43,082 nucleotides of DNA from Nitrospinae bacterium RIFCSPLOWO2_12_39_16 (GTDB lineage: Bacteria > Nitrospinota > Nitrospinia > UBA9942), in NCBI GenBank assembly GCA_001805005.1, contig MHDO01000021.1, positions 1 through 43,082 of the forward strand, given 5' to 3'. Below are positions 1,742 to 18,040 of this stretch, piece after piece. Below the pieces are notes generated by a model. That model was not told the origin of the DNA, searched no databases, and saw only the letters and a list, made by a program, of their open reading frames with translations. Each line of letters starts with the position of its first letter. Position 1 is the first letter of the stretch. Made by a program: the position numbers and the translations under genes.

Positions 1742-2245
1742 TCATAAAAAATACTTCTCGATCTCCGTTCCGTAACCTTCCTCTTCCTCTGTTGTTGTGC
1801 TGGATAACTCATCTATGATAGAGGCAAGATATTGTATTGACTCATCGGATGTTGTATTTTTGACTGTCTGATTTTGACCGACGGGATTAAGAAACACAAC
1901 TGCAGCCACAACGATAACGGCAACTATAGCTGATGCTAAAGCCATCCTGACCGCAAAGATATTTTTAAATGAAGAAGCTAATTCAGACAAAAAACCTGCT
2001 CCGGCTGCTGTTTTTTCTTCAGAAATAATCTCTTCTTTTATCCTCTGCCAGATCTTCTCATGGGAAAGGGATAGTTTTGGTGCATTTTTAAATGGCTCAA
2101 CCGTGCTTTCCATGGCAATCTCCATAAACTCTTTACAGTAAACACAAGAGGATAAATGAGCTTCTGCTTCCCTCCTGTTTTGTTCATTCATCATACCGTC
2201 TAAATAATCGGTCAATAAAACTTCCTGTATTTCTTTACATTTCAT
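1742..2245 (-). CDS. Anti-sigma factor, zf-HC2 type, single-pass membrane protein
   Basis: N-terminal MKCKEIQEVLLTDYLDG...AHLSSCVYCKEF (H-x3-C-x2-C zinc motif). Central TM ALASAIVAVIVVAAVVFL. Sits immediately downstream of the ECF sigma gene. Confidence 0.8.
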   Translation of the reverse strand: MKCKEIQEVLLTDYLDGMMNEQNRREAEAHLSSCVYCKEFMEIAMESTVEPFKNAPKLSLSHEKIWQRIKEEIISEEKTAAGAGFLSELASSFKNIFAVRMALASAIVAVIVVAAVVFLNPVGQNQTVKNTTSDESIQYLASIIDELSSTTTEEEEGYGTEIEKYFL

Positions 2246-2260
2246 ATTGAGCCACCTCTT

Positions 2261-2313
2261 TACCCCGTTACACCCAGAATGCCCCGCACTTCAGGACAGG
2301 GTGTAACGGGGTA
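2261..2313 (-). promoter_or_regulatory. Perfect 15-bp inverted repeat spanning the sigma stop codon, just upstream of the anti-sigma SD
   Basis: TACCCCGTTACACCC (2261-2275) and GGGTGTAACGGGGTA (2299-2313) are exact reverse complements separated by 23 nt. The sigma stop (2291-2293) lies in the loop. Confidence 0.6.
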
Positions 2314-2848
2314 TACTTAATGACATCATTGCTTCCCTTGCACGTTTAATGCGGCTGCGAACTGTGTTAATGGGAATATTCAGATTTTCAGCGATCTCCT
2401 GATAACTCAAGCCCTCAAGATTTCTAAGAACGATACATGCCCTCTGGTCGGGATTCAGGGCATCTAAAAGTCTGGCTATCATTTTTTTATTTTCCTGGTT
2501 TTTGATTGCATCTTCATCCTCCGGAGGAGAATGTGCAACCGCTTTATCATTGCCATGCTCAAGTATCTGTCTGAACTCTCTTGATAGCTTTTTTGCATGG
2601 TTAATCGCGGTATTGATAGCAATTCGGTAAATCCATGTTTTTAATGCTGATTCACCGCGAAAGGTTTTAAGGTTCCTGTAGATGGTCATAAAGACCTCCT
2701 GTGCCACATCTTCGGCATCGTCGGTATGCTTGACAATACGAAGCACCACATTAGCCACAAATTCAAAATATTCTCTATATATGGACTCAAAGGCTTTAAT
2801 ATCACCTTTGGCTGCCTTATTGACTATATCCCCGGATATTTCACTCAT
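2291..2848 (-). CDS. ECF-type RNA polymerase sigma-70 family factor
   Basis: 185 aa. Region 2 (DAEDVAQEVFMTIYRNLKTFRGESALKTWIYRIAINTAINHAKK) and region 4 (ACIVLRNLEGLSYQEIAENLNIPINTVRSRIKRAREAM) are typical ECF sigma. Confidence 0.9.
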   Translation of the reverse strand: MSEISGDIVNKAAKGDIKAFESIYREYFEFVANVVLRIVKHTDDAEDVAQEVFMTIYRNLKTFRGESALKTWIYRIAINTAINHAKKLSREFRQILEHGNDKAVAHSPPEDEDAIKNQENKKMIARLLDALNPDQRACIVLRNLEGLSYQEIAENLNIPINTVRSRIKRAREAMMSLSIPRYTLS

Positions 2849-4238: not shown

Positions 4239-4790
4239 TTAAAGTATCATTGCTAACTTTTTGGATATTTCCTCTTTTGTCAGCATACCTATGAAACTGT
4301 CTTTCACAAGGCCGTTTCTATCTATGAAGAAGCTCATTGGTATTCCAAATACCCTATAGGCATCGCTGGTAGTTCCGTCAATATCCAGTAAGATTGGGTA
4401 TGTCATCTTATAATCCTTTGCAAATTTAGATACCTTTGATTCATTTTCCTTTATGTTGACCCCGAGGATTACAAGCCCATTATCCTTATTTTCATCATAA
4501 CCTTTCTGGAGGTCGGGTATCTCCTCTCTGCAGGGGTGGCACCATGTTGCCCAGAAATTAATTATAACCGCCTTCCCCTTAAAACTGCTTAACTTTACAT
4601 CATTGCCGTTTAAGTCCTTCAATGTGAAATCCTGTGCAGGTTTTGGTTCGGAGGCTTGAGATTTTTTTTCTTCCTGTGAAATATCTGCTGATTTATTGCT
4701 ATCACAATTAAACGGCATGATAATCAATAATAGAAAGGCAAGAATTAATTTTAAACTTTGAATTTTGAACTTTGAGCTTTTATTATTCAT
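4239..4790 (-). CDS. TlpA/ResA-like periplasmic thiol:disulfide oxidoreductase (canonical WCHPC)
   Basis: FWATWCHPCREEIPDL thioredoxin-fold CXXC, signal anchor LILAFLLLIIMPF. ATG at 4790 overlaps the upstream stop (ATGA, 4787-4790) and has SD GGAGGG 6 nt upstream. The track start at 4823 is less likely. Confidence 0.85.
   Translation of the reverse strand: MNNKSSKFKIQSLKLILAFLLLIIMPFNCDSNKSADISQEEKKSQASEPKPAQDFTLKDLNGNDVKLSSFKGKAVIINFWATWCHPCREEIPDLQKGYDENKDNGLVILGVNIKENESKVSKFAKDYKMTYPILLDIDGTTSDAYRVFGIPMSFFIDRNGLVKDSFIGMLTKEEISKKLAMIL
4747..4781. repeat. Heptanucleotide array AATTTTG/AACTTTG x5
   Basis: AATTTTA AACTTTG AATTTTG AACTTTG AGCTTTT. Encodes SSKFKIQSLKLI of TlpA. Confidence 0.85.
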
Positions 4791-5608
4791 ATTCCCTCCG
4801 GATATACAATGGGTAAATCCCACCTGAATATTCTATCATCTTTTGTAGCCAGATTTCTTATTATCAGCTCAAAATATTCTGCCTTATCATCGAGTATCTC
4901 TTTTTTAAATTTTACTATCCCCTCCCTGTGATGCTTATCCCATGCCTCAAACCTCAGCTCCCATCCTTTATTTGCAGGATATTCTTTATTATTTACCCTC
5001 AGGTAGGATAATTCATCCAGAGGATAATTCTCAAGCCTGCCGTCATGAACATTTAAACTTATTATAAATACTATGTTATTTTCAACATCATATTTTTTTA
5101 TCAGGTCAGGTGCACCTATAGATTTAAGGTATTCGGATGTGGTGTATGTAATATCAGCATATACATCTCCATATCCCATATCATTCCTCCATAAGAGCCT
5201 TTGAATCTGTTTTACTATTCTATAAGGCAGATTAGACTGCGGGACTGGATAGGTTTCTTTTAAATAATTTGTTATAACATCTGCCTCTTTACTGGTCATC
5301 TCAACCCCTTTTTCCGCCCTCATCCTGTCCACTACCTCTATCCACCCTGCAGGGGGGAGAAGGACCATTTTTATAACCTCATCCCCGTGGCATTTGCGGT
5401 AACATTTTTGCTGATACAATACCCTCGCCTCTTTTTCGCTCAAATTTTTTATTATGGAGTGTTTGAACATAAATAGCTTTGTTAAACTGTAAACATAATC
5501 AATATCATCCTTAATGCCAGAACCTTCGGAGATTGCAAATAGGATTGCCGGTATGGAAATGGAGGTGGCTATAAGAAAAACAATAGAAATTTTTTTAAAT
5601 AATTTCAT
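4787..5608 (-). CDS. Secreted hypothetical protein with a CX3CH (CYRKCH) putative haem c-type site
   Basis: Signal/anchor MKLFKKISIVFLIATSISIPAILFA. QQKCYRKCHGDEVIKMVLLPPAGWIEVVDRMRAEKGVEMTSKEADVITNYLKETY resembles single-haem binding domains followed by a W..v.RM...g..ls..ea..i..YL helix pair. The motif was verified codon by codon at 5387-5404. Confidence 0.6.
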   Translation of the reverse strand: MKLFKKISIVFLIATSISIPAILFAISEGSGIKDDIDYVYSLTKLFMFKHSIIKNLSEKEARVLYQQKCYRKCHGDEVIKMVLLPPAGWIEVVDRMRAEKGVEMTSKEADVITNYLKETYPVPQSNLPYRIVKQIQRLLWRNDMGYGDVYADITYTTSEYLKSIGAPDLIKKYDVENNIVFIISLNVHDGRLENYPLDELSYLRVNNKEYPANKGWELRFEAWDKHHREGIVKFKKEILDDKAEYFELIIRNLATKDDRIFRWDLPIVYPEGI

Positions 5609-5650
5609 TAATAAAAATCTGTGAAAATCTGTGGTTAAGTTATGTTTTTA
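5609..5650 (+). repeat. Gene-boundary element, right half only
   Basis: AAAATCTGTG x2 then GTGGTTAAGTTATGTTTTTATTC. Lies between the FGE-fold stop and the start of the next gene. Confidence 0.55.
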
Positions 5651-6466
5651 TTCTTTGTAGTCCATCACACATCTGAATCCGTAATCATTAGACTCCATAT
5701 CAGGGCTTTCACCGAGTCTTACAGCGCTTCGGGTGCTGACTGCCGGGCTTAACCATGAGCCCCCTTTAATAACCCTAAGCTCTTTTTCCTTGTCATACCA
5801 TGTATCTGTCCATTCCCAAACATTCCCTGCCATATCATGGACACCATAAGGACTCTTACCCTCTTTATATTTATCCACCTCTGTTGTGCCTCCAAATGTT
5901 ATAGAACCTGATGTCTCCTGTGCAAACTGTCCTACCCTGGCACTCCCGCCCAATCCAGATTCATATGAGTTGCACATTAATGTATCAAATTCATTGCCCC
6001 ACGGATATATCCTTCCATCTGTCCCCCTCGCAGCCTTTTCCCACTCTTCCTCGGTTGGGAGTCTCTTTCCTGCAGATTTGCAGTATTCATTTGACTTATC
6101 CCATTTTATGTTTACTACAGGGTGTCTTGCCCTGTCTGATGGAAAACTATGGTTTGGGTCAAATTTTTTATAGTCAGCATTTGTTACCTCATGGATGTCT
6201 ATATAGAATGGTGGAAGGTTAATTTTCTTCTTAGGTTCTTCATCAGAATACCACTTTGACTTACCGCCTAACTTTTTGACTGTATCTTCTATTTCTGAAG
6301 TATCACTCCCCATTATAAACTCACCGGCAGGTATCAGAACCATCCCTTCCTGGGTTAAGGGAGATTCTGCCGATATTGCAAATTGCAAATTGCAAATTGC
6401 AAAAGTCAAAGTTATACCTAAAAAATATTTTGCTTTAAGTATTTTTCTGTGTAAATCTGTGTTCAT
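5648..6466 (-). CDS. FGE-sulfatase (SUMF1/EgtB/PvdO) fold protein, secreted, lacking the FGE catalytic Cys pair
   Basis: MVLIPAGEFIMGS, YIDIHEVTNADYKKF, AGKRLPTEEEWEKAARGTDGRIYPWGN, GNVWEWT, RVIKGGSWLS, GFRCV. No Cys between GGSW and GFRC. The N-terminus is encoded by repeat DNA, so the start is uncertain. Confidence 0.85.
   Translation of the reverse strand: MNTDLHRKILKAKYFLGITLTFAICNLQFAISAESPLTQEGMVLIPAGEFIMGSDTSEIEDTVKKLGGKSKWYSDEEPKKKINLPPFYIDIHEVTNADYKKFDPNHSFPSDRARHPVVNIKWDKSNEYCKSAGKRLPTEEEWEKAARGTDGRIYPWGNEFDTLMCNSYESGLGGSARVGQFAQETSGSITFGGTTEVDKYKEGKSPYGVHDMAGNVWEWTDTWYDKEKELRVIKGGSWLSPAVSTRSAVRLGESPDMESNDYGFRCVMDYKE
6375..6402. repeat. Heptanucleotide array ATTGCAA x4
   Basis: Exact 4 x 7 nt. 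Encodes FAICNLQFAI in the FGE-fold protein N-terminus. Confidence 0.9.
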
Positions 6467-6497
6467 CTGTGGTTAATTAGGTTTTTGTTTTTCCTTT
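6444..6497 (+). repeat. Gene-boundary element, right half only; 3' terminus forms the CcmH-like C-terminus
   Basis: TTTCTGTG TAAATCTGTG TTCATCTGTG GTTAATTAGGTTTTTGTTTTTCCT. The last 21 nt are identical to 41498-41518. Confidence 0.7.
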
Positions 6498-6950
6498 TTC
6501 TAAAAAATCCAGCACCCCTGTTATTATTAGATATAATACACCTGACCATACGAAGACAAGGGCAATGAAAAGGGCTATATCACTTATCGGATAGCCCCCC
6601 CTTGTGATTTGATACCATTTTCCATGTATTCTCTGCAGTGGTGTAAGCATTGACTCTTTTCCAAACCGCTTAAAAAAGTATCCCTCAATCTCATCCTTGC
6701 CTGCACCTGCCATCAGCCTTTTTCCTATCATATCCTTCCATTCCATTCCGCAGCTCATATGACAGTCTTCAAGGACCATCGGGCATTCACACGGGCAGGC
6801 AATGTTATGGGATATGCCCATCACAGTATCCGCAGCAGCAGAAGGCCAGAAGACATATTTTATAACAGAGAAGATAATTATAATTGATAAAGATAGAAGG
6901 AATATTTTTATTTTCATCTTGAAATTAATGAAATTATAAAATTTAGCCAC
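6477..6950 (-). CDS. CcmH/NrfF-like membrane-anchored protein with atypical Cys cluster
   Basis: IACPCECPMVLEDCHMSCGMEWKDMIGKRLMAGAGKDEIEGYFFKRFGKESMLTP followed by a TM helix. The layout matches CcmH (Cys motif, then an i..mv..G.sd.eI..yfv.rYG..vl..P helix), but the usual LRCxxC is replaced. The start may be ATG 6917 (MKIKIFLL) rather than GTG 6950. Confidence 0.55.
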   Translation of the reverse strand: MAKFYNFINFKMKIKIFLLSLSIIIIFSVIKYVFWPSAAADTVMGISHNIACPCECPMVLEDCHMSCGMEWKDMIGKRLMAGAGKDEIEGYFFKRFGKESMLTPLQRIHGKWYQITRGGYPISDIALFIALVFVWSGVLYLIITGVLDFLEKGKTKT

Positions 6951-7094
6951 AGACTTTCACGGACTAAAATATTAAAAAAACAATAATTAGGAGAAAGGGG
7001 GCATTTTCTTTTTTTCCTAATTTCTCCATTTCTCCTTAATCTTTTTATTTGTTTTTGGTCTGTGCGAGTCTGTGGCTAATCAATCTTTGTTCTT
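6921..7094 (+). repeat. Gene-boundary hairpin element with G5/C5 core
   Basis: 5' GAAATTATAAAATTTAGCCACAGACTTTCACGGACT. Core AGGAGAAAGGGGG...TTCTCCTTAATCTTTT. Right arm GGTCTGTGCGAGTCTGTGGCTAATCAATCTTTGTTCTT. Confidence 0.8.
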
Positions 7095-7882
7095 AATCTG
7101 CGTATAATTACAAATGCAATTAATATTACAATGCCTATACCGAGCAGCCATATCCCTTTTCTCCTTTCAATCAAGTCCTGTTTTGACATTGCAGAGAATT
7201 TTATATCTACGGAAGGCATAGTATCATCTTTAGCATATTTAATCTTAAATCTTACATCCTGTCCACCTTTTATATCCTTGAAAGTATAGTTATAATAATT
7301 TAAATCCTTCTTATTGACCTTGCTCATTGGCTCTGGTGAAAGCTTAAATTCTGTTGACCTCAGTGGCTCCTGAATGCTTACCTCAAGTGTATCTATCGGG
7401 TATATTAGTTTTATAATATATTCAAAGTCCCTAAGAAATCTGCCCGATTTTATATTAAACGGAGAGTATTTAAAATCTATGAAGAAATCGGCGTATGGAA
7501 GCTTTACGGATGTCTCGTTGTATTCGCCCTTATTAACAATATTATATAGCTGGCAAAAGTGCTGTCCCCCAGGAGAGAGGCTGCATACATCTGTTAGTTT
7601 TGTTACACCCTTTGGCAATGTAAATGTCACCTGATTTGGAAAGGCATCTTTATCGGCAAATTTCCCTTCATATACCACAAGGACATCAGATGATTCATAT
7701 TCAGGCATTATTGAAACCTTCATTCTACCTATTTTAAGGTCAGAAGCATTAGAAACAGTGACGAGTGACAAGTGACAAGTGACCAGTAAAAATAAAAAAC
7801 CACTGATTGCTGACCACTGACCACTGACCACTCTCTTCTGTCCTCTGTCTTCTGTCTTCTGTCTTCTGTCTTCAGTGTTCAT
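7076..7882 (-). CDS. Hypothetical exported protein with C-terminal membrane anchor
   Basis: Long ORF in an operonic position. N-terminal region RRQKTEDRGQKR + FLFLLVTCHLSLVTVSNA-SD resembles a signal peptide, but it is encoded by heptamer arrays. Beta-rich body, C-terminal TM IWLLGIGIVILIAFVII + RRLR. ATG 7882 is preceded by GGGGTGG. Confidence 0.6.
   Translation of the reverse strand: MNTEDRRQKTEDRGQKRVVSGQWSAISGFLFLLVTCHLSLVTVSNASDLKIGRMKVSIMPEYESSDVLVVYEGKFADKDAFPNQVTFTLPKGVTKLTDVCSLSPGGQHFCQLYNIVNKGEYNETSVKLPYADFFIDFKYSPFNIKSGRFLRDFEYIIKLIYPIDTLEVSIQEPLRSTEFKLSPEPMSKVNKKDLNYYNYTFKDIKGGQDVRFKIKYAKDDTMPSVDIKFSAMSKQDLIERRKGIWLLGIGIVILIAFVIIRRLRTKID
7757..7876. repeat. Three adjacent heptanucleotide tandem arrays
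   Basis: AGTGACN x4 (7757-7787), CACTGAC-type x4 (7801-7832), CTTCTGT-type x6 (7835-7876). Confidence 0.9.
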
Positions 7883-8567
7883 GTAATAACCACCCCACAA
7901 GGTAACTTTTATATATTGTCATCCAGTTTGCCAATATCAGGATTGACATGGTGATAAGTAGCCCGCCGCTGATACGCTGGACTATATTTCTAATATTTTT
8001 TAAGCCGTCAACAGATAAGGTTTTTGAAATTGTAAGTCCTGCAATACTAAATGCAGTGGAGATGCCGAGAGAATAAAAACTGAGCATCACTGTCCCCCTA
8101 TATACTGTTTCAGATGACTTGGTAAGGTTGTAAATAGATGTCAGGGTTGGTGTTACACAGGGTTGATACGCCATTGCAAAGGAAAATCCAATTAAAAGCC
8201 CGCCAAATCTCCTATAGTATTTCCCTTTGTCTTCAGCTATACGAAATAGTCCGATAAAGTAAAGACCCATTAACAAGAGAAATACACCGCCAAATTGATT
8301 TAAGATAGTTAAATATCCGAAAATTATATTACTGATGGATGTAGCAGAAGCACCCAAAATTATATAACCTGCCATAAATCCTATAAGACACAATATACCC
8401 CCTGTAATTATATCTGATAACGCCTCTACCCATTTTCTATCCCCGATTTCTATCATTGTCAGCCCTATGATATAAGCCAAGAAAAATGGTGTCACCTGAA
8501 AGAGACAGAAAAACCAAATAGAGAAGAAGTTATGCAGACCGCCTATATATGCTTCAAAAATAGTCAT
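7872..8567 (-). CDS. CcdA/DsbD-family cytochrome c biogenesis thiol-reductant transporter
   Basis: 231 aa, six TM helices, with Cys in TM1 (FFCLFQVTPFF) and TM4 (YQPCVTPTL), as in the CcdA C..P pattern. Confidence 0.75.
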   Translation of the reverse strand: MTIFEAYIGGLHNFFSIWFFCLFQVTPFFLAYIIGLTMIEIGDRKWVEALSDIITGGILCLIGFMAGYIILGASATSISNIIFGYLTILNQFGGVFLLLMGLYFIGLFRIAEDKGKYYRRFGGLLIGFSFAMAYQPCVTPTLTSIYNLTKSSETVYRGTVMLSFYSLGISTAFSIAGLTISKTLSVDGLKNIRNIVQRISGGLLITMSILILANWMTIYKSYLVGWLLHEH

Positions 8568-8571
8568 AAAA

Positions 8572-8613
8572 GTCAGAAGTCAGAAGACAGATTTTCTGTT
8601 CTCTGTCCTCTGA
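8572..8613. repeat. Inverted heptamer arrays forming an intercistronic hairpin
   Basis: GTCAGAA GTCAGAA GACAGA - ttt - TCTGTTC TCTGTCC TCTGA. Spans the thioredoxin-fold stop, 5 nt from the CcdA start. Confidence 0.75.
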
Positions 8614-9241
8614 TTTTTTCTATCCTTTCCGAGATTTCTTCATATTTTTTTAATTTACCAACAAAGATAGAATCTATCTTTCCTTCTTTATTGATAAAAA
8701 TCGTAGTTGGAGTCGTTGCCACTCCATAGCCCCTTGCGACTTCCTGTTTTAAGTCAAACCCTGCAGGGAATTTGAGTTTATGCTTGTCTAAAAATTTAGA
8801 CAGGTCTGTTTCATTATCCTGAATACCTATGCCTATTAAGTTAACTCCGCTGAATTCTTCAGATGCCTGTTTCAGAAATTGTGCAGATGCATTGGAGCAT
8901 GGGCACCAGTTTGCATAGAAAAACATTACCATTGGCTTCCCATCCCCGCCTGAACCCTCGTGATGATGGGCATGGTTAGGGGAAAAGTTGAATGTTTTGC
9001 CATCTACCAATTTTAGGGAAAAATTTGGGGCTTTATCTCCTACCTTGAGGAGCGTTATTGGAGGGGTATAATTTAATATACCCCTTAAAACAAGGGCAAC
9101 AGCAACAAGGATTACAATTTTGTTAATCTGAAATGATTCACTTATTGGTGCCCCTCTTTCAATGGAGGTGTCCACTTTCTGCTCCAAGTCCTTCACTCTG
9201 GTATGTTCCTTTAACTTTAGTTCCGCTCTTTCTAAGGGCAT
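8573..9241 (-). CDS. Thioredoxin-fold (TlpA/redoxin-like) protein with CXC active site (WCPC) and His-rich insert
   Basis: VMFFYANWCPCSNASAQF read directly from the DNA (tgg tgc cca tgc). HAHHHEGSGGDGK lies just upstream. TM anchor IVILVAVALVL. cis-Pro region GVATTPTTIFI. The 5' end overlaps the upstream ORF by 83 nt, so the start is uncertain. Confidence 0.8.
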   Translation of the reverse strand: MPLERAELKLKEHTRVKDLEQKVDTSIERGAPISESFQINKIVILVAVALVLRGILNYTPPITLLKVGDKAPNFSLKLVDGKTFNFSPNHAHHHEGSGGDGKPMVMFFYANWCPCSNASAQFLKQASEEFSGVNLIGIGIQDNETDLSKFLDKHKLKFPAGFDLKQEVARGYGVATTPTTIFINKEGKIDSIFVGKLKKYEEISERIEKIRGQRTENLSSDF

Positions 9242-9710
9242 ATTCTATTTTCCTTTTTTCTATTGGTGTATTAGAGAGGTCAATCAAAATTTTGTTATTA
9301 CCAATCAGTTTTAACAGGTCATCTTTTCTGAAATCCCCTTCCCAGTTTCCAACCCATGCATTCCATGTCTGAACAATAGCAGATGCCTGATAATCTGTAA
9401 TATCAAAAAATTTCTTGTGAGGCTCCCTTGCCCTGTACTCTTCAAGGAATTTTCGCATGTGCGGGACTACTGCTATAAAGGGTGGTCCGCACCTGTGGCA
9501 ATATTTTAAAATCCTTTCCGTGTCATGGCACTGCGTGCATTTCTCTGTAGCCAATGCCTTTGCATCATCAGGGGAGTATTCCATATACCCCCTTGCCTTT
9601 ATCTCTTCGGTTATCTTTTTGCCAATACTATTGGGAACAGCCATCACCAGTGTGAACCCTGCAAGGATTACAACAAATATACTTATAAAAATTATAGTTT
9701 TCTTTTTCAT
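9159..9710 (-). CDS. Membrane-anchored c-type cytochrome (one CXXCH)
   Basis: Signal anchor MKKKTIIFISIFVVILAGFTLVMA. CTQCHD haem motif, plus a second Cys pair KYCHRCGPP. Confidence 0.7.
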   Translation of the reverse strand: MKKKTIIFISIFVVILAGFTLVMAVPNSIGKKITEEIKARGYMEYSPDDAKALATEKCTQCHDTERILKYCHRCGPPFIAVVPHMRKFLEEYRAREPHKKFFDITDYQASAIVQTWNAWVGNWEGDFRKDDLLKLIGNNKILIDLSNTPIEKRKIEYALRKSGTKVKGTYQSEGLGAESGHLH

Positions 9711-9936: not shown

Positions 9937-9951
9937 TGGTATGTAGTTTGC
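9937..9951 (+). promoter_or_regulatory. Sigma-54-like -24/-12 motif (TGGTAT-N5-TTGC), doubtful
   Basis: TGGTATGTAGTTTGC has correct GG-N10-GC spacing. However, the GC is only 21 nt from ATG 9972, so the predicted TSS would remove the SD. Confidence 0.25.
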
Positions 9952-9971
9952 TTTTCTAAAGGAGAAAAAAG

Positions 9972-11408
9972 ATGGATGAGGATATGAATAAAATTATTAT
10001 CATAGATGATGATGAGTCTATCTGTAAGACATTGGAGCTCCATCTAAAGAGAAACGGATACGATGTCAGTTTTGCACATACAGGTGGTGAGGGGATAAAG
10101 ATGGTAAGCGAGAATGAACCCCAGATTGTCATACTTGATATAAGGCTTCCTGATACAGATGGGATTGAGGTTTTAAGGCAGCTTAAATCTATAGACAATA
10201 ATAAATATATAATCATGATTACAGCATTTCAGGATATGGAGACTACAATAAAGGCTATGCAGGAAGGGGCTTTTGAGTATATCCATAAGCCCATAAGCAT
10301 AGATGAATTGGACAGGGCAGTGGATAATGCAGTGAGGAGCCTTAAGATACTTACAGGGGAAAGGGAAGAGACCATAAAGATACCGAAGATGAATGTTGGC
10401 GAGGGGAAGATAATCGGAAAGAGCAAGATTATGAAAGAGATATTCAAGACAATCGGTGTTGTCTCTCAGAGCAGGACAACTGTCCTGATTGAAGGGGAGA
10501 GCGGGACAGGGAAGGAGTTAATAGCGAAGGCTATCCATTTTAATAGTCCGTATAAGGGGTATCCGTTTATATCCATCAATTGTTCCGCCCTTGTAGAGAC
10601 ACTCCTTGAGAGCGAGCTTTTCGGGCATGAAAAGGGGGCGTTTACAGGGGCTTTATACCGTAAAGACGGAAAATTTACACTTGCCAATAACGGCACGCTT
10701 TTCATGGATGAGATTGGAGAGATGAGTTTAAATCTACAGACAAAACTTCTAAGAGTCCTGCAGGAGAGGGAGTTTGAGAGGGTGGGGGGGAAGGAGAAGA
10801 TAAAGACAAATGTGAGGGTCATAACAGCCACGAATAAAAAACTTGATAATCTGGTGAAACAGGGAAAATTCAGGGAAGACCTTTATTACAGGCTGAAGGT
10901 GGTAACTATTGATGTCCCCCCGTTGAGGGAGAGAAAGGAAGATATACCGTTGCTTGTGGAATATATGATTAACAAAGTGAATAATGACCTTAGTAGAAAT
11001 GTGAGGAAAATATCAAATAAGGCACTTGAACTTTTACTGAATAATCCGTGGGTTGGAAATGTCAGGGAGCTTGAAAATGTAATTACAAGGGCTATTCTTC
11101 TTTCAAGAGAGGATAGGCTCGGCGAAGAGCATTTTACCCTGTTTTTAAAGGGGGATACAGGCAAACCAATAGAACATAAATTAGTGGTGGATGCTAATGG
11201 AGTGCGTGGGCATGAAATAAAAGATGATTCGTTAAATGACATTGAGAAGATACACATAGCGAAGGTGTTGAATTTTACAAACTGGCATAAGGGGAAGGCT
11301 TGTGAAATTCTTGGAATAACAAGGCCAAGATTGGAGAGGAAGATAAGAAAATATGACATTAAATCAGTGGAAAAAATATCAGAAAAAATATCAGAAAAAA
11401 TAACTTGA
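9972..11408 (+). CDS. Sigma-54-dependent response regulator (REC - AAA+ - Fis-type HTH), NtrC family
   Basis: REC (IIIIDDDES...ILDIRLPDTDG). Walker [15 protein letters not shown] loop in [16 protein letters not shown]-terminal HTH KACEILGITRPRLERKIRKY. SD AAGGAG 7 nt upstream of the ATG. Confidence 0.95.
   Translation: MDEDMNKIIIIDDDESICKTLELHLKRNGYDVSFAHTGGEGIKMVSENEPQIVILDIRLPDTDGIEVLRQLKSIDNNKYIIMITAFQDMETTIKAMQEGAFEYIHKPISIDELDRAVDNAVRSLKILTGEREETIKIPKMNVGEGKIIGKSKIMKEIFKTIGVVSQSRTTVLIEGESGTGKELIAKAIHFNSPYKGYPFISINCSALVETLLESELFGHEKGAFTGALYRKDGKFTLANNGTLFMDEIGEMSLNLQTKLLRVLQEREFERVGGKEKIKTNVRVITATNKKLDNLVKQGKFREDLYYRLKVVTIDVPPLRERKEDIPLLVEYMINKVNNDLSRNVRKISNKALELLLNNPWVGNVRELENVITRAILLSREDRLGEEHFTLFLKGDTGKPIEHKLVVDANGVRGHEIKDDSLNDIEKIHIAKVLNFTNWHKGKACEILGITRPRLERKIRKYDIKSVEKISEKISEKIT
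11364..11402 (+). repeat. 12-nt tandem repeat TCAGAAAAAATA x2 plus one 15-nt variant unit (3 units)
   Basis: Encodes the C-terminal SVEKISEKISEKIT tail of the sigma-54 activator. Confidence 0.85.
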
Positions 11409-11644: not shown

Positions 11645-11660
11645 TGGTATAAGGATTGCA
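11645..11660 (+). promoter_or_regulatory. Candidate sigma-54 promoter for the secreted cytochrome c gene
   Basis: TGGTATAAGGATTGCA has GG (11646-11647) and GC (11658-11659) separated by 10 nt with a TTGCA -12 box. It lies 157 nt upstream of ATG 11817 and directly downstream of a sigma-54 activator gene. Confidence 0.5.
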
Positions 11661-11816
11661 ATTATTCCACTTAATGTTGAATTATACAATAATTAAGGTT
11701 GTCATAATATAAAAATTCAAATAGAAAGGAGGTGAATGTTGGTTAGTTAGTTGTTAAATGAGGATGTTTTAGTTAATTAGGTTGGGGGAAATTATTTGAA
11801 GAGGAGGATAAAAAAT

Positions 11817-13090: not shown

Positions 13091-13211
13091 ATATAGGAAA
13101 TTATAAAATTAACCACAGGTAAACACAGATGAACACTGATAGAATAAAGAAAAAAAGTTTTTATCTGTGTTAATCTGTGTCCATCTGTGGTTTCATTAGG
13201 TCTTTGTTCTT
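13091..13211 (+). repeat. Gene-boundary hairpin element (CACAGAT decamer arms), reference copy
   Basis: ATATAGGAAATTATAAAAT-TAACCACAGGTAAACACAGATGAACACTGATAG ... TTATCTGTGTTAATCTGTGTCCATCTGTGGTTTCATTAGGTCTTTGTTCTT. The arms are about 26/32 complementary. Confidence 0.85.
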
Positions 13212-13213
13212 AT

Positions 13214-14158
13214 ATGATAGAAGTAGAAAATCTTACAAAAAAATATGGCAATGCGAGGGGAATTAATGATGTCACCTTTACTGTAGAGAAGGGTGAAATC
13301 CTTGGATTTCTTGGTCCGAATGGTGCCGGCAAGACAACCACTATGAGGATTATCACCTGCTTTATGCCTGCAACAAGCGGAAAGGCGAGGGTTGCGGGTT
13401 TTGATGTCTTTGAGGATTCCCTTGAGGTTAGAAAAAGGATAGGGTATCTTCCAGAGAGTGTTCCCCTTTACACTGATATGCAGGTGCCGGTTTATCTTGA
13501 ATTTGTTGGGGGGTTAAAAGGTGTTGACAGGAGGGATATAAAGAGAAGGGTAGCTCAGGTGATGGATGACTGCGGTTTAAATGCAGTGGCAAAGAAATAT
13601 ATTGCTGAACTTTCCAAGGGTTACAGACAGAGGGTTGGGTTGGCACAGGCACTTATAAATGACCCGGAAGTTCTTATCCTTGATGAACCGACTATTGGAC
13701 TTGACCCAAAGCAGATTATAGAGATAAGGAGTCTTATAAAGGGACTTGGCGGCAAAAGGACAGTTATATTAAGCACACATATCCTGCCAGAGGTTAGTAT
13801 GACCTGTCAGAGGGTCATAATAATAAATGAAGGAAGGCTGGTGGCAGTAGATACACCACAAAACCTTACTGCCCAGCTTCAGAAATCACAGCAGTTTATA
13901 GTGAGGATTGACGGTCCGGAACAAGAGGTCCTATCGGAGATTGGAAAAATAAATACTGTATCAAGGGTTGCAGTTAAAGAGAGCGGGGCAGACGGGATTA
14001 ATTCCTATCTGGTGGAATTTAAGAAAGATTCAGATGGCGGTAAAGATATAGCTCCTGTCATTGTCAGAAAAAATTGGGCATTATATGAGATGCGTCCTAT
14101 AGGGATGAGTCTTGAGGATATATTTATTAAGCTTGTAACAGAAGAGAAGATACACTGA
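13214..14158 (+). CDS. ABC transporter ATP-binding protein (ABC-2 / GldA-like)
   Basis: Walker [10 protein letters not shown], signature LSKGYRQRV, Walker B VLILDEPT. The conventional N-terminus [12 protein letters not shown] begins at ATG 13214. The track extension is repeat-encoded. Confidence 0.95.
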
Positions 14159-14220
14159 TAACTTGCAACTTACAATCTATAACTTAGTTGTCAGTTGTCA
14201 GTTAATAGTTATTATTAATA

Positions 14221-15000
14221 ATGAAAAATTTTTATCTTATATTTCAAAAAGAACTCAGGTCATATTTTAATTCACCAATCGCCTTTGTCGTTATCACCAT
14301 ATTTCTTATAATCTCAGGGTATTTCTTTTATACTATATTTGCCACATTCAGCACCATCAGTTTCCAGGTAATGACCAATCCCATAATGGCGCAGCAGTAT
14401 AATCAGTTAAATATAACAGAGATGGTTGTCAGGCCGTTCTTTGCCAATATAAGCCTCTTCATGCTCATAATGCTGCCAATGCTTACAATGAGGATATTTT
14501 CTGAAGAGAAGAAGAGTGGAACGATAGAACTCCTGCTGACATACCCTGTAAAAGACTCTGAGGTTATACTTGGTAAATTTGCCGGTTGTATGGGGATATT
14601 TACTATAATGATTCTCCTCACCCTGCCATGTATATTTCTCATAGAATTGTTTGGTGAGCCTGAGATGGGTGTTGTATTAAGCGGCTATGTGGGGCTGTTT
14701 TTAATGGGGGCAGCGTTTATATCACTTGGGATATTTGCCTCATCCGTTACTGAGAACCAGATTGTGGCTGCCGTTGTATCCTTTGGCTTTCTGCTTATAT
14801 TCTTCATGATGGGCTATTCGGCGGGTTTTGCCAGTGAGACCATAGGAGGTATTTTAAAATATCTGTCTTTTACGCCTCACCTCTACAATTTCGCAAAAGG
14901 TGTCCTTGATACAGAGGATATCATGTATTATTTATTATTTACTCTCTTCTGCATCTTCCTGAATATGAGGTCATTGGAGTCAAAGAGATGGAGAGGATGA
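14221..15000 (+). CDS. ABC-2 type transporter permease (GldF-like)
   Basis: 259 aa, six TM helices. EEKKSGTIELLLTYPV motif typical of ABC-2 permeases. Adjacent to the ATPase. Confidence 0.85.
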   Translation: MKNFYLIFQKELRSYFNSPIAFVVITIFLIISGYFFYTIFATFSTISFQVMTNPIMAQQYNQLNITEMVVRPFFANISLFMLIMLPMLTMRIFSEEKKSGTIELLLTYPVKDSEVILGKFAGCMGIFTIMILLTLPCIFLIELFGEPEMGVVLSGYVGLFLMGAAFISLGIFASSVTENQIVAAVVSFGFLLIFFMMGYSAGFASETIGGILKYLSFTPHLYNFAKGVLDTEDIMYYLLFTLFCIFLNMRSLESKRWRG

Positions 15001-15001
15001 T

Positions 15002-16591
15002 ATGAAAACGATTACTTATATACTCGGTATTATCGGTTTAATCCTGATTTTTGCTGGCGGTATTATATATGCCATTCAGTCAACCCTTAGTATAACTGCT
15101 GCTGTTTTCCTCTGGGTGGGGCTTCTGCTCGTCCTCTTCTTTCTTTATGTAAACTTCTCTGATATAAGGAACTTTATCCTCAAGAGGTCAACCCGCTATG
15201 GGGCAAATATGGCGGTGGTCATAGTGATATTTCTGTGTGTGATTGTCCTCCTCGGTTTTATGTCTGTAAACCGCAAGAAAAGGGTTGACCTTACAAAGAC
15301 AGGCAGATATACCCTGTCAGAGCAGACAATAAAGATTTTAAAATCCCTTAAAAAAGATGTGAAGGCAGTGGCATTTTATAGAAGCGAGGAAGAAACCTAT
15401 CATGCCATGCTGAGACAGAACGCTGAGGACCTGCTCCAGGAATATTCATATCATATACCTAAATTTACCTTTAGATTCATAGACCCCGACAGGAACCCCG
15501 GGCTTGCAATGAAATATGGTGTATCTGAATACAGGATAATTCTCCTGATGGCAGGTGGTAAGCAGGAGAAGATAGGATTTGAGAGTGAGGAGAAGCTTAC
15601 AAATGCCCTTATTAAGGTAACAAGGGATGAGGTTAAAACAATATATTTTGTAAAGGGGCATGGGGAAAATGATATCTCAAGTATTCAGAAACTGGGCTAT
15701 AAGGCGGCGAAGGATGCTGTAGAAAAAGAGAATTATCTTGTAAAGGAACTGCTCCTTATGAATGAGGAGAGGGTGCCGGCGGGTGCATCAGTTGTCATTA
15801 TCTCAGGGCCAAAGAGAGATTTTTTACAGGATGAGTTAGACAAACTAAAAAAATATGTAGAAAATGGCGGGAGCCTATTGGCTATGGTTGACCCCGGGCA
15901 TCCGCTTACAATAAAAAACTTCCTTGCAGGATATGGATTTAAGGTGGGCGACGATGTAATCTTTGATACTCAGAGCCGCGTGTATGGTGCTAATGAATTA
16001 ACCCCTGTTGTATATCAATATGACAAAGACCATCCATTGACATCAGAATTTAATCTTGCAACATATTTTTATCTTGTAGGTACTGTTGATATTGAAAAGG
16101 ATAAAAAGAAAGGTCAATATCAGCTTGCCATGACAGGCCCAAACAGCTGGGCTGAAAAGGATTTAAAAAAGTGGAGCGAAACCGGAGAGGCATCTTTTGA
16201 TGAAGGTAAGGAGAAGAGGGGGCCTTTATCCATTGCTGCAGTAACAACTGTTCCTGTAAAGGGTTCATCTGACGCCGGTGTTGACGAGAGTGGAAAGCTC
16301 AAAGAAGGGAGATTTAAATTCGGCAAAATTATAGCTTTTGGTGATTCCGATTTTGCGAATAATACTAATATCAATCTTGCAGGAAATGGAGAGCTTTTTT
16401 TAAACACTATAGGATGGCTTGCCGAAGAGGCCGACCTTATATCCATAAGAAAAAGAGATGCCAAAAACACACCTGTAACCCTCACAGTTGCACAGGGAAG
16501 GGCAATTTTCTGGATACCTGTAATTGTTATACCTTCTCTGGTGCTTATCTCAGGCATTGGTATATACAGCAGAAGAAGATGGATGAGATGA
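15002..16591 (+). CDS. GldG-like ABC-transporter auxiliary protein
   Basis: N-terminal TM pair and a C-terminal TM. IIAFGDSDFANNTNINLAGNGELFLNTIGWL matches the GldG family signature region. Start is 1 nt after the permease stop. Confidence 0.8.
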   Translation: MKTITYILGIIGLILIFAGGIIYAIQSTLSITAAVFLWVGLLLVLFFLYVNFSDIRNFILKRSTRYGANMAVVIVIFLCVIVLLGFMSVNRKKRVDLTKTGRYTLSEQTIKILKSLKKDVKAVAFYRSEEETYHAMLRQNAEDLLQEYSYHIPKFTFRFIDPDRNPGLAMKYGVSEYRIILLMAGGKQEKIGFESEEKLTNALIKVTRDEVKTIYFVKGHGENDISSIQKLGYKAAKDAVEKENYLVKELLLMNEERVPAGASVVIISGPKRDFLQDELDKLKKYVENGGSLLAMVDPGHPLTIKNFLAGYGFKVGDDVIFDTQSRVYGANELTPVVYQYDKDHPLTSEFNLATYFYLVGTVDIEKDKKKGQYQLAMTGPNSWAEKDLKKWSETGEASFDEGKEKRGPLSIAAVTTVPVKGSSDAGVDESGKLKEGRFKFGKIIAFGDSDFANNTNINLAGNGELFLNTIGWLAEEADLISIRKRDAKNTPVTLTVAQGRAIFWIPVIVIPSLVLISGIGIYSRRRWMR

Positions 16592-16596
16592 AAGAG

Positions 16597-16670
16597 TTTC
16601 AAGCTTCAAGTTTCATGTTATAAATCACGATTTTCAAATCTTGCAACTTGCATCTTGCAACCTGCAACTT
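16597..16670. repeat. Heptamer arrays TTTCAAG x3 and CTTGCAA x4
   Basis: 16597-16617 and 16640-16670, between GldG-like and DUF4340-like genes. Confidence 0.8.
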
Positions 16671-16675
16671 TCGTT

Positions 16676-18040
16676 ATGAAATATTTCAAAAAAACATTTC
16701 TCTGGATAATAATCCTTGCAGCCCTTGCGGGGTATTTCTATCTCGATGTGGAGACCACAAAGAAAAAGGAGATAGAAAAAGAAGAGGCAACGAGGCTCCT
16801 TCCATTTAAACCTTCAGAGGTTTTGGAATTGGAATTGAAGAAGGATGGTAACCTAATACTCCTTCAGAGGTGGGAAGATGGATGGCGTATAGAAAAACCT
16901 ATTAAGGCAAAGGCAGACAACAAGGCGGTTGAGAAGGCATTAGACTATATAACCCAGTCAAAGAATGATGCGGAGTATGTGATGGATGAAAATCCGACAC
17001 AGGAGAGGCTTGCTGAATTTGGCCTTATAAATCCTCAGCTGGAGGTTACTTTAAGGGTTGGTAAGACTTTGAAACCCTATACACTTATATTCGGAGAGAG
17101 GGCACCGACAAAGGGAGTTGCATTTGCAATATTAAAGGGAAGCCCGAAGGTCTATAGAGTATTGGCAGATGCGAGGGCAGAGGCAGACCAGAGCTTGTAT
17201 TATTTTAGGGATAAGACAATATTTAGAACCGAACCTAACATGGTGGATAAAGTAGAAATAGTAAAAGATAATAAAAAGATTAAATGTGAACTTCCGATGG
17301 AAGAAAAAGGAAAGTGGGAAATTGTATCACCAGTAAAGGCAAGGGCGGATATGATTAAAATCATAGAAATAGTTTCAAAATTCAAGGATAGTGAAATAAA
17401 GGAGTTCATAGATGAAGAACCTAAGGACCTAAAGGCATACGGGTTGTATCCTGTTAAAACAAAGCTGTCAATTTGGCTAAGCGGAGATGAAACACCTACA
17501 GAGACAATATTTATTGGCGATAGGGATAAAAAAAAGAGGGGTTATTTTGCTAAGCTGGAGAAGAAGGACAATATATTCCTCATAGAAGAGAATATGATTG
17601 ACCTTCTGCCGGATGATGCAGAGGTATTAAGGGAAAGAAGCATACTGTTCTTTGAGGAAGAGAAGGTAAATAAGATAGAGGTAAAATATCCAGACAGAGA
17701 AATGGTTGTTGCAAAGACCCCGGATTTTGAATGGAAGGTAATAAAACCAAGAGAGGCAGATTTTGATTTTAATGTGGTTAAGGACTTTTTACAGAGAATA
17801 GGGGGCTTTAAGATAAAAGAATTTATATCAGAGGGGCATGAAGGATTAAAGACATACGGGCTTGATAGTCCTGCTATAAAACTTCTGATATGGGAAGAGG
17901 GAAATAAGACACCGCATGAGTTAAATATAGGGAGTATAAGCAGTAAAGGAGATGGGATATATGTATGGACAGGTGAGCAGGATACTGTTGTTCTTATAGA
18001 TGAGAAGATAAAGGGGGTGGTAAAAGAGAGTTTTATTTAG
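16676..18040 (+). CDS. DUF4340-like protein (usual partner of ABC-2/GldG systems)
   Basis: N-terminal anchor MKYFKKTFLWIIILAALAGYF and repeated beta-rich modules. The position directly after GldG-like is the usual synteny. The track start at 16655 is repeat-encoded. Confidence 0.65.
   Translation: MKYFKKTFLWIIILAALAGYFYLDVETTKKKEIEKEEATRLLPFKPSEVLELELKKDGNLILLQRWEDGWRIEKPIKAKADNKAVEKALDYITQSKNDAEYVMDENPTQERLAEFGLINPQLEVTLRVGKTLKPYTLIFGERAPTKGVAFAILKGSPKVYRVLADARAEADQSLYYFRDKTIFRTEPNMVDKVEIVKDNKKIKCELPMEEKGKWEIVSPVKARADMIKIIEIVSKFKDSEIKEFIDEEPKDLKAYGLYPVKTKLSIWLSGDETPTETIFIGDRDKKKRGYFAKLEKKDNIFLIEENMIDLLPDDAEVLRERSILFFEEEKVNKIEVKYPDREMVVAKTPDFEWKVIKPREADFDFNVVKDFLQRIGGFKIKEFISEGHEGLKTYGLDSPAIKLLIWEEGNKTPHELNIGSISSKGDGIYVWTGEQDTVVLIDEKIKGVVKESFI

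Follow-up and report, generated by a model that had tools for sequence, protein, structure and literature searches.

Haem c sites of the form CX3CH, with three residues between the two cysteines, stand on the list of accepted rare haem c motifs (PMC11492766) and have been described in ImcH and some CymA homologues (PMC6295460) and in a branch of MtrA homologues (bioRxiv 10.1101/2025.05.29.656830). The stretch of DNA analysed here, positions 1 to 43,082 of contig MHDO01000021.1 of Nitrospinae bacterium RIFCSPLOWO2_12_39_16 (the window), carries on its minus strand a gene (4787-5608, stop codon included, from the open reading frame (ORF) list and translation) for a 273-residue protein bearing this motif, P0001, which we call the CX3CH protein. 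Like the sites in ImcH, CymA and MtrA, its motif has one extra residue between the haem cysteines and is conserved within the lineage; whereas each of those is one site among several in a multihaem cytochrome, mostly with bis-His (or His/Cys) ligation, the motif of the Nitrospinota protein would be the sole haem site of a His/Met class-I-type domain. A preliminary description of this DNA held that CX3CH haem c sites exist but are rare, which agrees with the literature (PMC11492766, PMC6295460), and the motif described here is most likely a site of this rare but known type, in a periplasmic protein, hitherto uncharacterised, from uncultured members of Nitrospinota. We consider P0001 quite probably an exported protein of two domains, in which CX3CH serves as the haem c site of a class-I cytochrome domain.

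The motif was read directly from minus-strand bases 5404-5387, where tgt tac cgc aaa tgc cac encodes C-Y-R-K-C-H, residues 69-74 of the 273-residue ORF; this reverse-complement reading agrees with the preliminary description, which had placed CX3CH at 5387-5404, and the flanking residues match those it quoted. As a bare pattern the motif is not distinctive: in six-frame ORFs of at least 60 residues from the source genome (1.88 Mb, 73% complete), C-x3-C-H occurs 42 times, C-x4-C-H 42 times and C-x2-C-H 233 times, and the majority of the C-x3-C-H and C-x4-C-H occurrences lie in non-coding frames. Taken alone the C-x3-C-H pattern is at chance level, so that the case rests on the position of the motif and on its conservation.

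That conservation is complete in the sequences retrieved. A word-indexed search identified 17 full-length homologues (38-94% identity); where a source is named, it is mostly given as Nitrospinae/Nitrospinota. In the alignment of these homologues (A1) C69, C73, H74 and M96 are invariant. Through an exhaustive HMMER search of 1.8 billion cluster representatives the set was extended to remoter proteins with both domains, the lowest identity being 24%. C-x3-C-H is present in all full-length two-domain homologues from the protein searches (26/26) and in all orthologues from genome loci (27/27), with CXXCH in neither set (0/26 and 0/27). The orthologue loci, 24 in number and drawn from species-representative genomes, encode proteins with 37-92% identity to the CX3CH protein. 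The inner tripeptides of the 27 orthologues differ (YRQ, YRK, YRR, NRG, VGR, YKR and YRA) and always comprise three residues. The check proposed in the preliminary description, whether CX3CH is conserved in homologues, has therefore been run with a clear outcome: the spacing does not vary and the Cys-His pattern is never missing.

In a maximum-likelihood (ML) tree of 81 small cytochrome domains the motif type changes only twice, and one group holds 29 of the 31 CX3CH domains; the two outside it are one unresolved family member and the middle repeat of P0107. Because the tree needs only these two changes and places 29 of 31 domains together, the one-residue insertion looks old and retained through divergence of the family. 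P0107 is a PscC-like membrane cytochrome in which the middle of three domains of this family (residues 221-297) has the site CARRCH, probably an independent occurrence of the same insertion. The source genome also encodes, on contig C97 (1637-2185, plus strand), a 182-residue NapC/NirT-type tetrahaem protein whose first site, beside a transmembrane helix, is CSSQCH, likewise CX3CH, and whose later sites are CADCH, CERCH and CLNCH; it resembles ImcH and some CymA homologues.

The predicted haem domain occupies residues ~55-125 (5234-5446, minus strand) and is a small class-I cytochrome c domain of the type found in the alpha subunit of quinohemoprotein amine dehydrogenase (QHNDH), SorB and PscC. 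Many proteins retrieved by the exhaustive search match residues ~55-125 only; these proteins, whose motif is the canonical CXXCH, either consist of one small domain or are cytochromes with several repeats. When 12 such related CXXCH domains were aligned with CX3CH domains (17 sequences in all, alignment A3), CX3CH fell in the CXXCH columns as a single-residue insertion between the cysteines, within a shared layout of ~65 residues consisting of a helix, the Cys/Cys-His site, a loop, W..V.RM and G..(I/L)T..EA..I..YL. Both cysteines, the histidine, W89 and L116 do not vary among the 17 sequences, which include both motif types; for L64 and M96 conservation is at least 90%, and M96 aligns with the methionine of the RM/KM pair in 1JJU, 2BLF and 3A9F. 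The helix pair W..V.RM...G....EA..I..YL, which the preliminary description had picked out after the motif, belongs to this layout common to the cytochrome relatives.

Searched against the PDB, the A3 profile matched haem domain 1 of QHNDH alpha (1JJU_A, E 5e-17), QHNDH alpha (1JMX_A, E 1.9e-14), SorB (2BLF_B, E 2.4e-8) and cytochrome cz/PscC (3A9F, E 3.8e-6; 7UEA_C, E 2.9e-5). In the AlphaFold (AF2) model of the CX3CH protein, which has a mean predicted local distance difference test score (pLDDT) of 82.9, residues 53-120 superpose on 3A9F (Z 7.5 over 68 residues) and on 2BLF (Z 7.3; VIA-align), and the motif sits in a helical class-I cytochrome c fold, not in the thioredoxin fold of Sco or the cupredoxin fold of CuA. 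Profile and superposition on solved cytochromes thus support the single-haem domain that had been suggested at the outset. The database HMM search suggested along with it gave a divided answer: P0001 by itself falls below the cut-off of PF09098 (19.3 bits, E 9.5e-4, at profile positions 7-69 of 167 in Pfam), whereas the family profile finds the solved cytochromes. Precomputed PF09098 matches exist for the homologues P0009 and P0013; P0001 has weak NCBIfam matches to QH_alpha and SorB, and its TIGR03908 score is 20 bits against a cut-off of 274.

The comparison with these described proteins also marks the limits of the kinship. Haem domain 1 of QHNDH alpha (PF09098; 1JJU, 1JMX) has the same ~65-residue layout; unlike the CX3CH protein, which has a single haem domain, QHNDH alpha carries two CXXCH haem domains in tandem followed by amine dehydrogenase beta-barrels, and in place of the latter the CX3CH protein has a beta-sandwich with a histidine triad that is unrelated in sequence, with no qhp genes nearby. 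With its score below the cut-off, its single haem and its different C-terminus, the CX3CH protein falls outside the QHNDH alpha family in the strict sense. SorB (2BLF_B) and the C-terminal domain of cytochrome cz/PscC (3A9F) resemble it as small mono-haem class-I domains, which pass single electrons to or from a partner protein, yet both have CXXCH, and their partners, a molybdoenzyme and a photosynthetic reaction centre, are both absent here.

The N-terminus of the protein is basic (MKLFKK) and leads into a hydrophobic helix at residues 2-26 of the AF2 model (residues 1-26, 5531-5608, minus strand), a segment that is hydrophobic in all homologues. These features fit a signal peptide or an N-in/C-out membrane anchor; of the earlier term 'secreted', the hydrophobic N-terminal helix stands, whereas the protein may instead remain anchored to the membrane by it. 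The genome encodes a full cytochrome c maturation System I (Ccm), with CcmE, CcmF, CcmH and a CcmI-like protein on contig C13 and CcmA/B/C on contig C74, and a search of this 73% complete genome found no ResB. Those features of a c-type cytochrome that can be assessed here are accordingly present: a Cys-Xn-Cys-His site (n = 3), the fold and the position of the site within it, a conserved candidate for the distal ligand, and predicted export together with a maturation system. By homology, C69 and C73 in the predicted attachment site (5387-5404, minus strand), with its spacing invariant across the family, are the likely attachment points of haem c, whose axial ligands would be H74 and M96; M96, in V-D-R-M (5321-5323, minus strand), is the likely distal ligand on the strength of its conservation.

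We propose that the CX3CH protein is exported to face the periplasm, either N-terminally anchored or secreted, and that C69 and C73 would be kept reduced there, the likely agents being a TlpA-like protein, whose translation is coupled to it from the next gene downstream, and the CcdA-like and CcmH-like paralogues encoded in the same operon. System I, encoded elsewhere in the genome (CcmABC, CcmEFH), would then link C69 and C73 to the haem vinyls by thioether bonds, with H74 as the proximal and M96 as the distal axial ligand, and the haem domain, tethered to the C-terminal beta-sandwich, would relay electrons one at a time. An ancestral CXXCH would have gained one residue between its cysteines early in the history of the family and kept it since. 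In this scheme the motif with its position and conservation, the homology, the fold, the synteny of the operon and the presence of Ccm are observed, and the haem attachment, the ligands, the reductant of the cysteines and the use of the electrons are the parts that we infer.

Several considerations weigh against assigning P0001 as a haem protein. The support for covalent haem, a prediction, is one of homology and conservation; P0001 alone misses the PF09098 gathering cut-off (19.3 against 25.2 bits), and the strong PDB E-values stem from a profile that includes CXXCH relatives. The loop that follows the motif (residues 71-90) is of low confidence in the model (pLDDT 57-64), which makes the geometry of the pocket tentative, although low values would be expected there for a haem protein modelled without its haem. 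A Cys2-His-Met ligand set could in principle bind copper, and the operon has copper-like features, namely MDHSKM-type tails on orthologues of its 274-residue protein, a His-rich insert and a CPC site in its thioredoxin-like protein, and an HMA-domain gene neighbouring a stand-alone gene for the C-terminal domain. The role proposed for the thiol-redox paralogues of the operon, finally, is drawn from gene neighbourhood.

The second domain of the CX3CH protein is a Cys-less beta-sandwich (residues ~135-270; 4799-5206, minus strand), modelled mostly at pLDDT 85-96, that matched no Pfam or NCBIfam family and for which an ESM Atlas feature search gave no name. The preliminary description had called the remainder of the protein beta-rich without a recognisable domain, and this ~140-residue beta-sandwich with no family match is what it contains. 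A Foldseek search of the whole model against the PDB gave generic immunoglobulin matches only, and the best structural matches of the domain (Z 7.9 to 3FJV and 7.8 to CrdA) are within the stated noise range of the tool. The family is widespread and extracytoplasmic: the domain alone is matched by more than 100 cluster representatives, typically lipoproteins or anchored proteins of 150-230 residues, that have no conserved cysteine and share a nearly invariant signature, T-H ... W ... (S)HHR(S)G ... ER.F.W.LP. In P0001 the triad of histidines in this signature comprises H188 of the 'TH' motif (5045-5047, minus strand), invariant in A1 and nearly so in alignments A2 and A6, and H226-H227, the 'HH' of (S)HHR(S)G (4928-4933, minus strand), invariant in two alignments and at least 90% conserved in another.

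The domain family is functionally tied to membrane proteins of the CcdA/DsbD type. In other phyla its gene lies directly upstream of a DsbD_TM/CcdA gene (L008; L041:6001-7336) or the domain is fused to DsbD_TM (P0064, P0118 and P0161); of the 935 members of one Atlas cluster with the domain, 86% carry DsbD_TM. In a Chloroflexi locus (L042) the gene adjoins that of an HMA-domain membrane protein, and in L010, P0052 and P0057 the domain stands beside or is fused with a beta-propeller. In DsbD and ScsB a periplasmic immunoglobulin-like domain is joined to the DsbD transmembrane domain, and the N-terminal fusion of relatives of the C-terminal domain to DsbD_TM resembles this nDsbD-tmDsbD arrangement; unlike nDsbD, the domain is Cys-less, which precludes a thiol-disulfide relay, and has the invariant His triad instead. 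An nDsbD-like thiol relay was considered for the domain and rejected, since the family has no conserved cysteine.

Eight co-directional genes (4239-9710, all on the minus strand) make up the operon, and in the order of transcription the CX3CH gene is number seven. Gene 1 (9159-9710) encodes an anchored cytochrome that belongs to the same family of small domains (hhalign against A3, 95.5% probability, E 1.6e-8); it has a canonical CTQCH and, eight residues on, a conserved CxRC pair (Y-C-x-R-C-G-P-P), possibly an adjacent disulfide or a Cys ligand at the haem domain. Gene 2 (8573-9241) encodes a membrane-anchored protein of thioredoxin fold with a W-C-P-C-S (CXC) site that 21 orthologues keep as WCPCS; the copy of the source genome has a His-rich insert (NHAHHHEGSGGDG) that is missing from four aligned orthologues. 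The product of gene 3 (7872-8567) is a divergent CcdA-like membrane protein (PF02683, 19.4 bits) with conserved transmembrane cysteines C21 and C137.

Gene 4 (7076-7900) encodes a 274-residue protein with a beta-sandwich and a C-terminal transmembrane segment (alignment A8; model pLDDT 84.5), whose fold is like that of ribophorin I/Ost1, a luminal domain plus transmembrane segment (Z 14.1 to 6S7O_E and 13.0 to 6C26_1; VIA-align), and also resembles the N-domain of M1 aminopeptidases (Z ~10-11.6); it contains an invariant C-SLSP-x-G-x-HF-C motif. Its orthologues include those at L023:5876-6775, L030:4493-5314, L035:5871-6785 and L003:5946-6794, and several orthologues open with MDHSKM-type repeats rich in His and Met, as periplasmic proteins that bind copper typically have.

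Gene 5 (6477-6950) encodes a divergent CcmH paralogue (PF03918, 23.6 bits) with the motif CPCECPMVLEDCHMSC, present in 24 of 24 orthologues. Its cysteines follow the pattern CxCxC-x6-C-x3/4-C, against the textbook LRCxxC, and so do those of the housekeeping CcmH (C13:4547-5110, minus strand), so that the five-Cys pattern looks like a lineage-wide variant; the idea that it was a metal site specific to the operon was dropped on this account. Gene 6 (5648-6466) encodes a protein of formylglycine-generating enzyme (FGE)-sulfatase fold (PF03781, 6.6e-53), an accessory member that is missing from the locus L009; measured against what we take to be the FGE motif, it does not have the FGE Cys pair. 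Gene 8 (4239-4790), for a TlpA-like lipoprotein thioredoxin with a WCxPC site (Pfam AhpC-TSA/Redoxin), begins with an ATG that overlaps the stop codon of the CX3CH gene (ATGA at 4790-4787); the only match to SCO1-SenC, a weak one, was on this TlpA-like neighbour. When the haem domain was co-folded with that of the TlpA-like protein, the ipSAE was 0.08, and the result was used as evidence neither for nor against contact.

This gene order recurs in about 20 species-level metagenome-assembled genomes (MAGs) of Nitrospinota type, at 37-92% identity. The distant locus L009 lacks the FGE gene, and L007 and L020 keep only the CX3CH-TlpA pair. Within the source GTDB phylum the CX3CH gene occurs in 7 of 120 genomes and the 274-residue gene 4 in the same seven and one incomplete relative (8/120), counts that come from three genera only and from kin that are not independent. 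Housekeeping counterparts of the operon genes are encoded elsewhere in the genome, CcmH on C13 and a canonical DsbD_TM on C121, and the thioredoxin-like gene is likewise additional.

Two readings of what the operon does can be put forward, a dedicated thiol reduction (CcdA to Trx to CcmH-like) for its two unusual cytochromes and the handling of a metal, probably copper. The stricter form of the first, in which the haem c site depends absolutely on the CcdA-like, thioredoxin-like and CcmH-like proteins of the operon as a thio-reduction branch of its own, on which the CXXCH+CXXC cytochrome of gene 1 would depend too, is possible and yet, in our judgement, rather doubtful. Dedicated maturation factors are known for other atypical motifs, NrfEFG for CXXCK and CcsA1 for CX15CH (PMC3601427), and provide a precedent; as in those systems, a cytochrome with an unusual motif has a CcmH paralogue (NrfF is one) encoded next to it. 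The three thiol-redox genes are extra, divergent copies beside the housekeeping ones, synteny and co-occurrence are strict, and the CX3CH and TlpA genes overlap at ATGA and persist as a pair by themselves in L007 and L020. Unlike NrfEFG and CcsA1, however, the Nitrospinota operon has no CcmF/NrfE or CcsA paralogue that might act as lyase and has the extra CcdA-like and thioredoxin-like genes instead.

In the genome as a whole CcmF and CcmC are each found once, along with a HemX-like gene, and in this 73% complete assembly PF01578 matches only on contigs C13, C74, C17 and C71, with none in the window. The NapC/NirT-type CX3CH cytochrome on C97, moreover, lies outside the operon, and a private thio-reduction branch would assign no role to the FGE-like and ribophorin-like proteins or to the His-triad domain. 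The Ccm system of Escherichia coli tolerates some changes of Cys spacing, which also speaks against an absolute dependence. Studies of Cys spacing have given results termed 'mixed' (PMC4158909). The 'special handling' that the preliminary description had anticipated for such sites is hence plausible from the operon, whereas the C97 protein, with a CX3CH site and no such operon around it, tells against a general need.

A second alternative is that haem has been lost and that C69, C73, H74 and M96 now form a thiol-redox or metal (for example Cu) site, using CX3C-plus-His chemistry like that of Sco and CuA, within a periplasmic copper or thiol-stress system. The operon lends this some colour, through the MDHSKM-like His/Met-rich tails of gene 4 orthologues, the CPC site and His-rich loop of the thioredoxin-fold neighbour, the five Cys of the CcmH-like protein with a His and a Met, and the HMA-domain gene that adjoins a stand-alone gene for the C-terminal domain. 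The tails, the His-rich insert, the HMA neighbour and the His triad of the C-terminal domain are also what supports metal handling as the task of the operon as a whole. The TlpA-like partner is, in addition, always retained, and in Bradyrhizobium TlpA reduces the copper sites of Sco and CoxB. The haem domain itself points the other way: all of its signature residues, Met and His included, are at the positions of the CXXCH relatives, and its fold is that of a helical class-I cytochrome c and neither a thioredoxin nor a cupredoxin. In CuA the His lies three residues after the second Cys, whereas here the two are adjacent, the arrangement of haem sites. The five-Cys motif is shared by the CcmH-like protein and the housekeeping CcmH and is hence a trait of the lineage. 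Because the haem-domain signatures are all retained within a class-I cytochrome fold, we regard loss of haem in favour of a metal or thiol site as improbable.

That C-x3-C-H is a functionless chance occurrence, as its 42 genomic occurrences, equal in number to those of C-x4-C-H, might suggest, can be dismissed with near certainty, given that it is invariant in 27 orthologues and in 26 homologues from databases, the most distant at 24% identity, and that it stands at the homologous position of CXXCH.

On the preferred reading of CX3CH as a haem c site, a broader and distinctly tentative proposal can be made for the operon, namely that the CX3CH protein is the haem subunit of a new periplasmic machine that couples thiol/disulfide chemistry to one-electron haem transfer, together with the divergent CcdA, CPC thioredoxin, five-Cys CcmH-paralogue, ribophorin-like anchored and Cys-less FGE-fold proteins. 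Such a machine could be a private line of thio-reduction and maturation for non-standard cytochromes, or a cytochrome-linked redox system for thiols or a metal (Cu), the latter with a loose parallel in the Mia40(CPC)-Erv1-cytochrome c relay. In either variant the His-triad domain would dock the haem domain onto a CcdA-type membrane protein.

The surroundings of the operon add some features of their own. Just downstream are genes for a Spy/CpxP/ZraP-like periplasmic protein and an extracytoplasmic function (ECF) sigma/anti-sigma pair (680-1159 and 1742-2848, minus strand), which suggest an envelope-stress neighbourhood. An ATP-binding cassette (ABC) transporter (ABC2_membrane_2 / ABC_transp_aux / DUF4340, GldG-like) is encoded at 13187-18040 on the plus strand, and the same transporter type lies near the operon in a close relative (L001:1-2113) and in the distant locus L009 (L009:1-2141). 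Two sigma-54-like sites, TGGTAT-N5-TTGC, occur on the plus strand, one at 9937-9952, just upstream of an NtrC-type activator gene (9972-11408), and the other at 11645-11660, upstream of a cytochrome c gene at 11796. Against a shuffle mean of 1.2 these two sites are not above chance, and the pattern scan, with its sites on the plus strand only, found none for the minus-strand operon.

The CX3CH site itself is already known, mostly as an odd single site inside multihaem cytochromes. New are the fixation of the extra residue across a family of mono-haem His/Met domains, the fusion of the haem domain to an unnamed domain associated with CcdA-type proteins, and the strict operon context of the gene. 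The family offers a clean natural case, all of its members carrying the extra residue while their sequence relatives have CXXCH, and it is suited to the questions of how that residue affects haem geometry and redox potential and of whether System I needs help in maturing CX3CH. The association also ties a redox cofactor, as predicted here, to a widespread and unnamed His-triad beta-sandwich, and would provide a first handle both on the function of that domain and on that of the conserved eight-gene operon of Nitrospinota; if the operon does encode a machine of the kind proposed, this would be of more interest than the CX3CH site alone.

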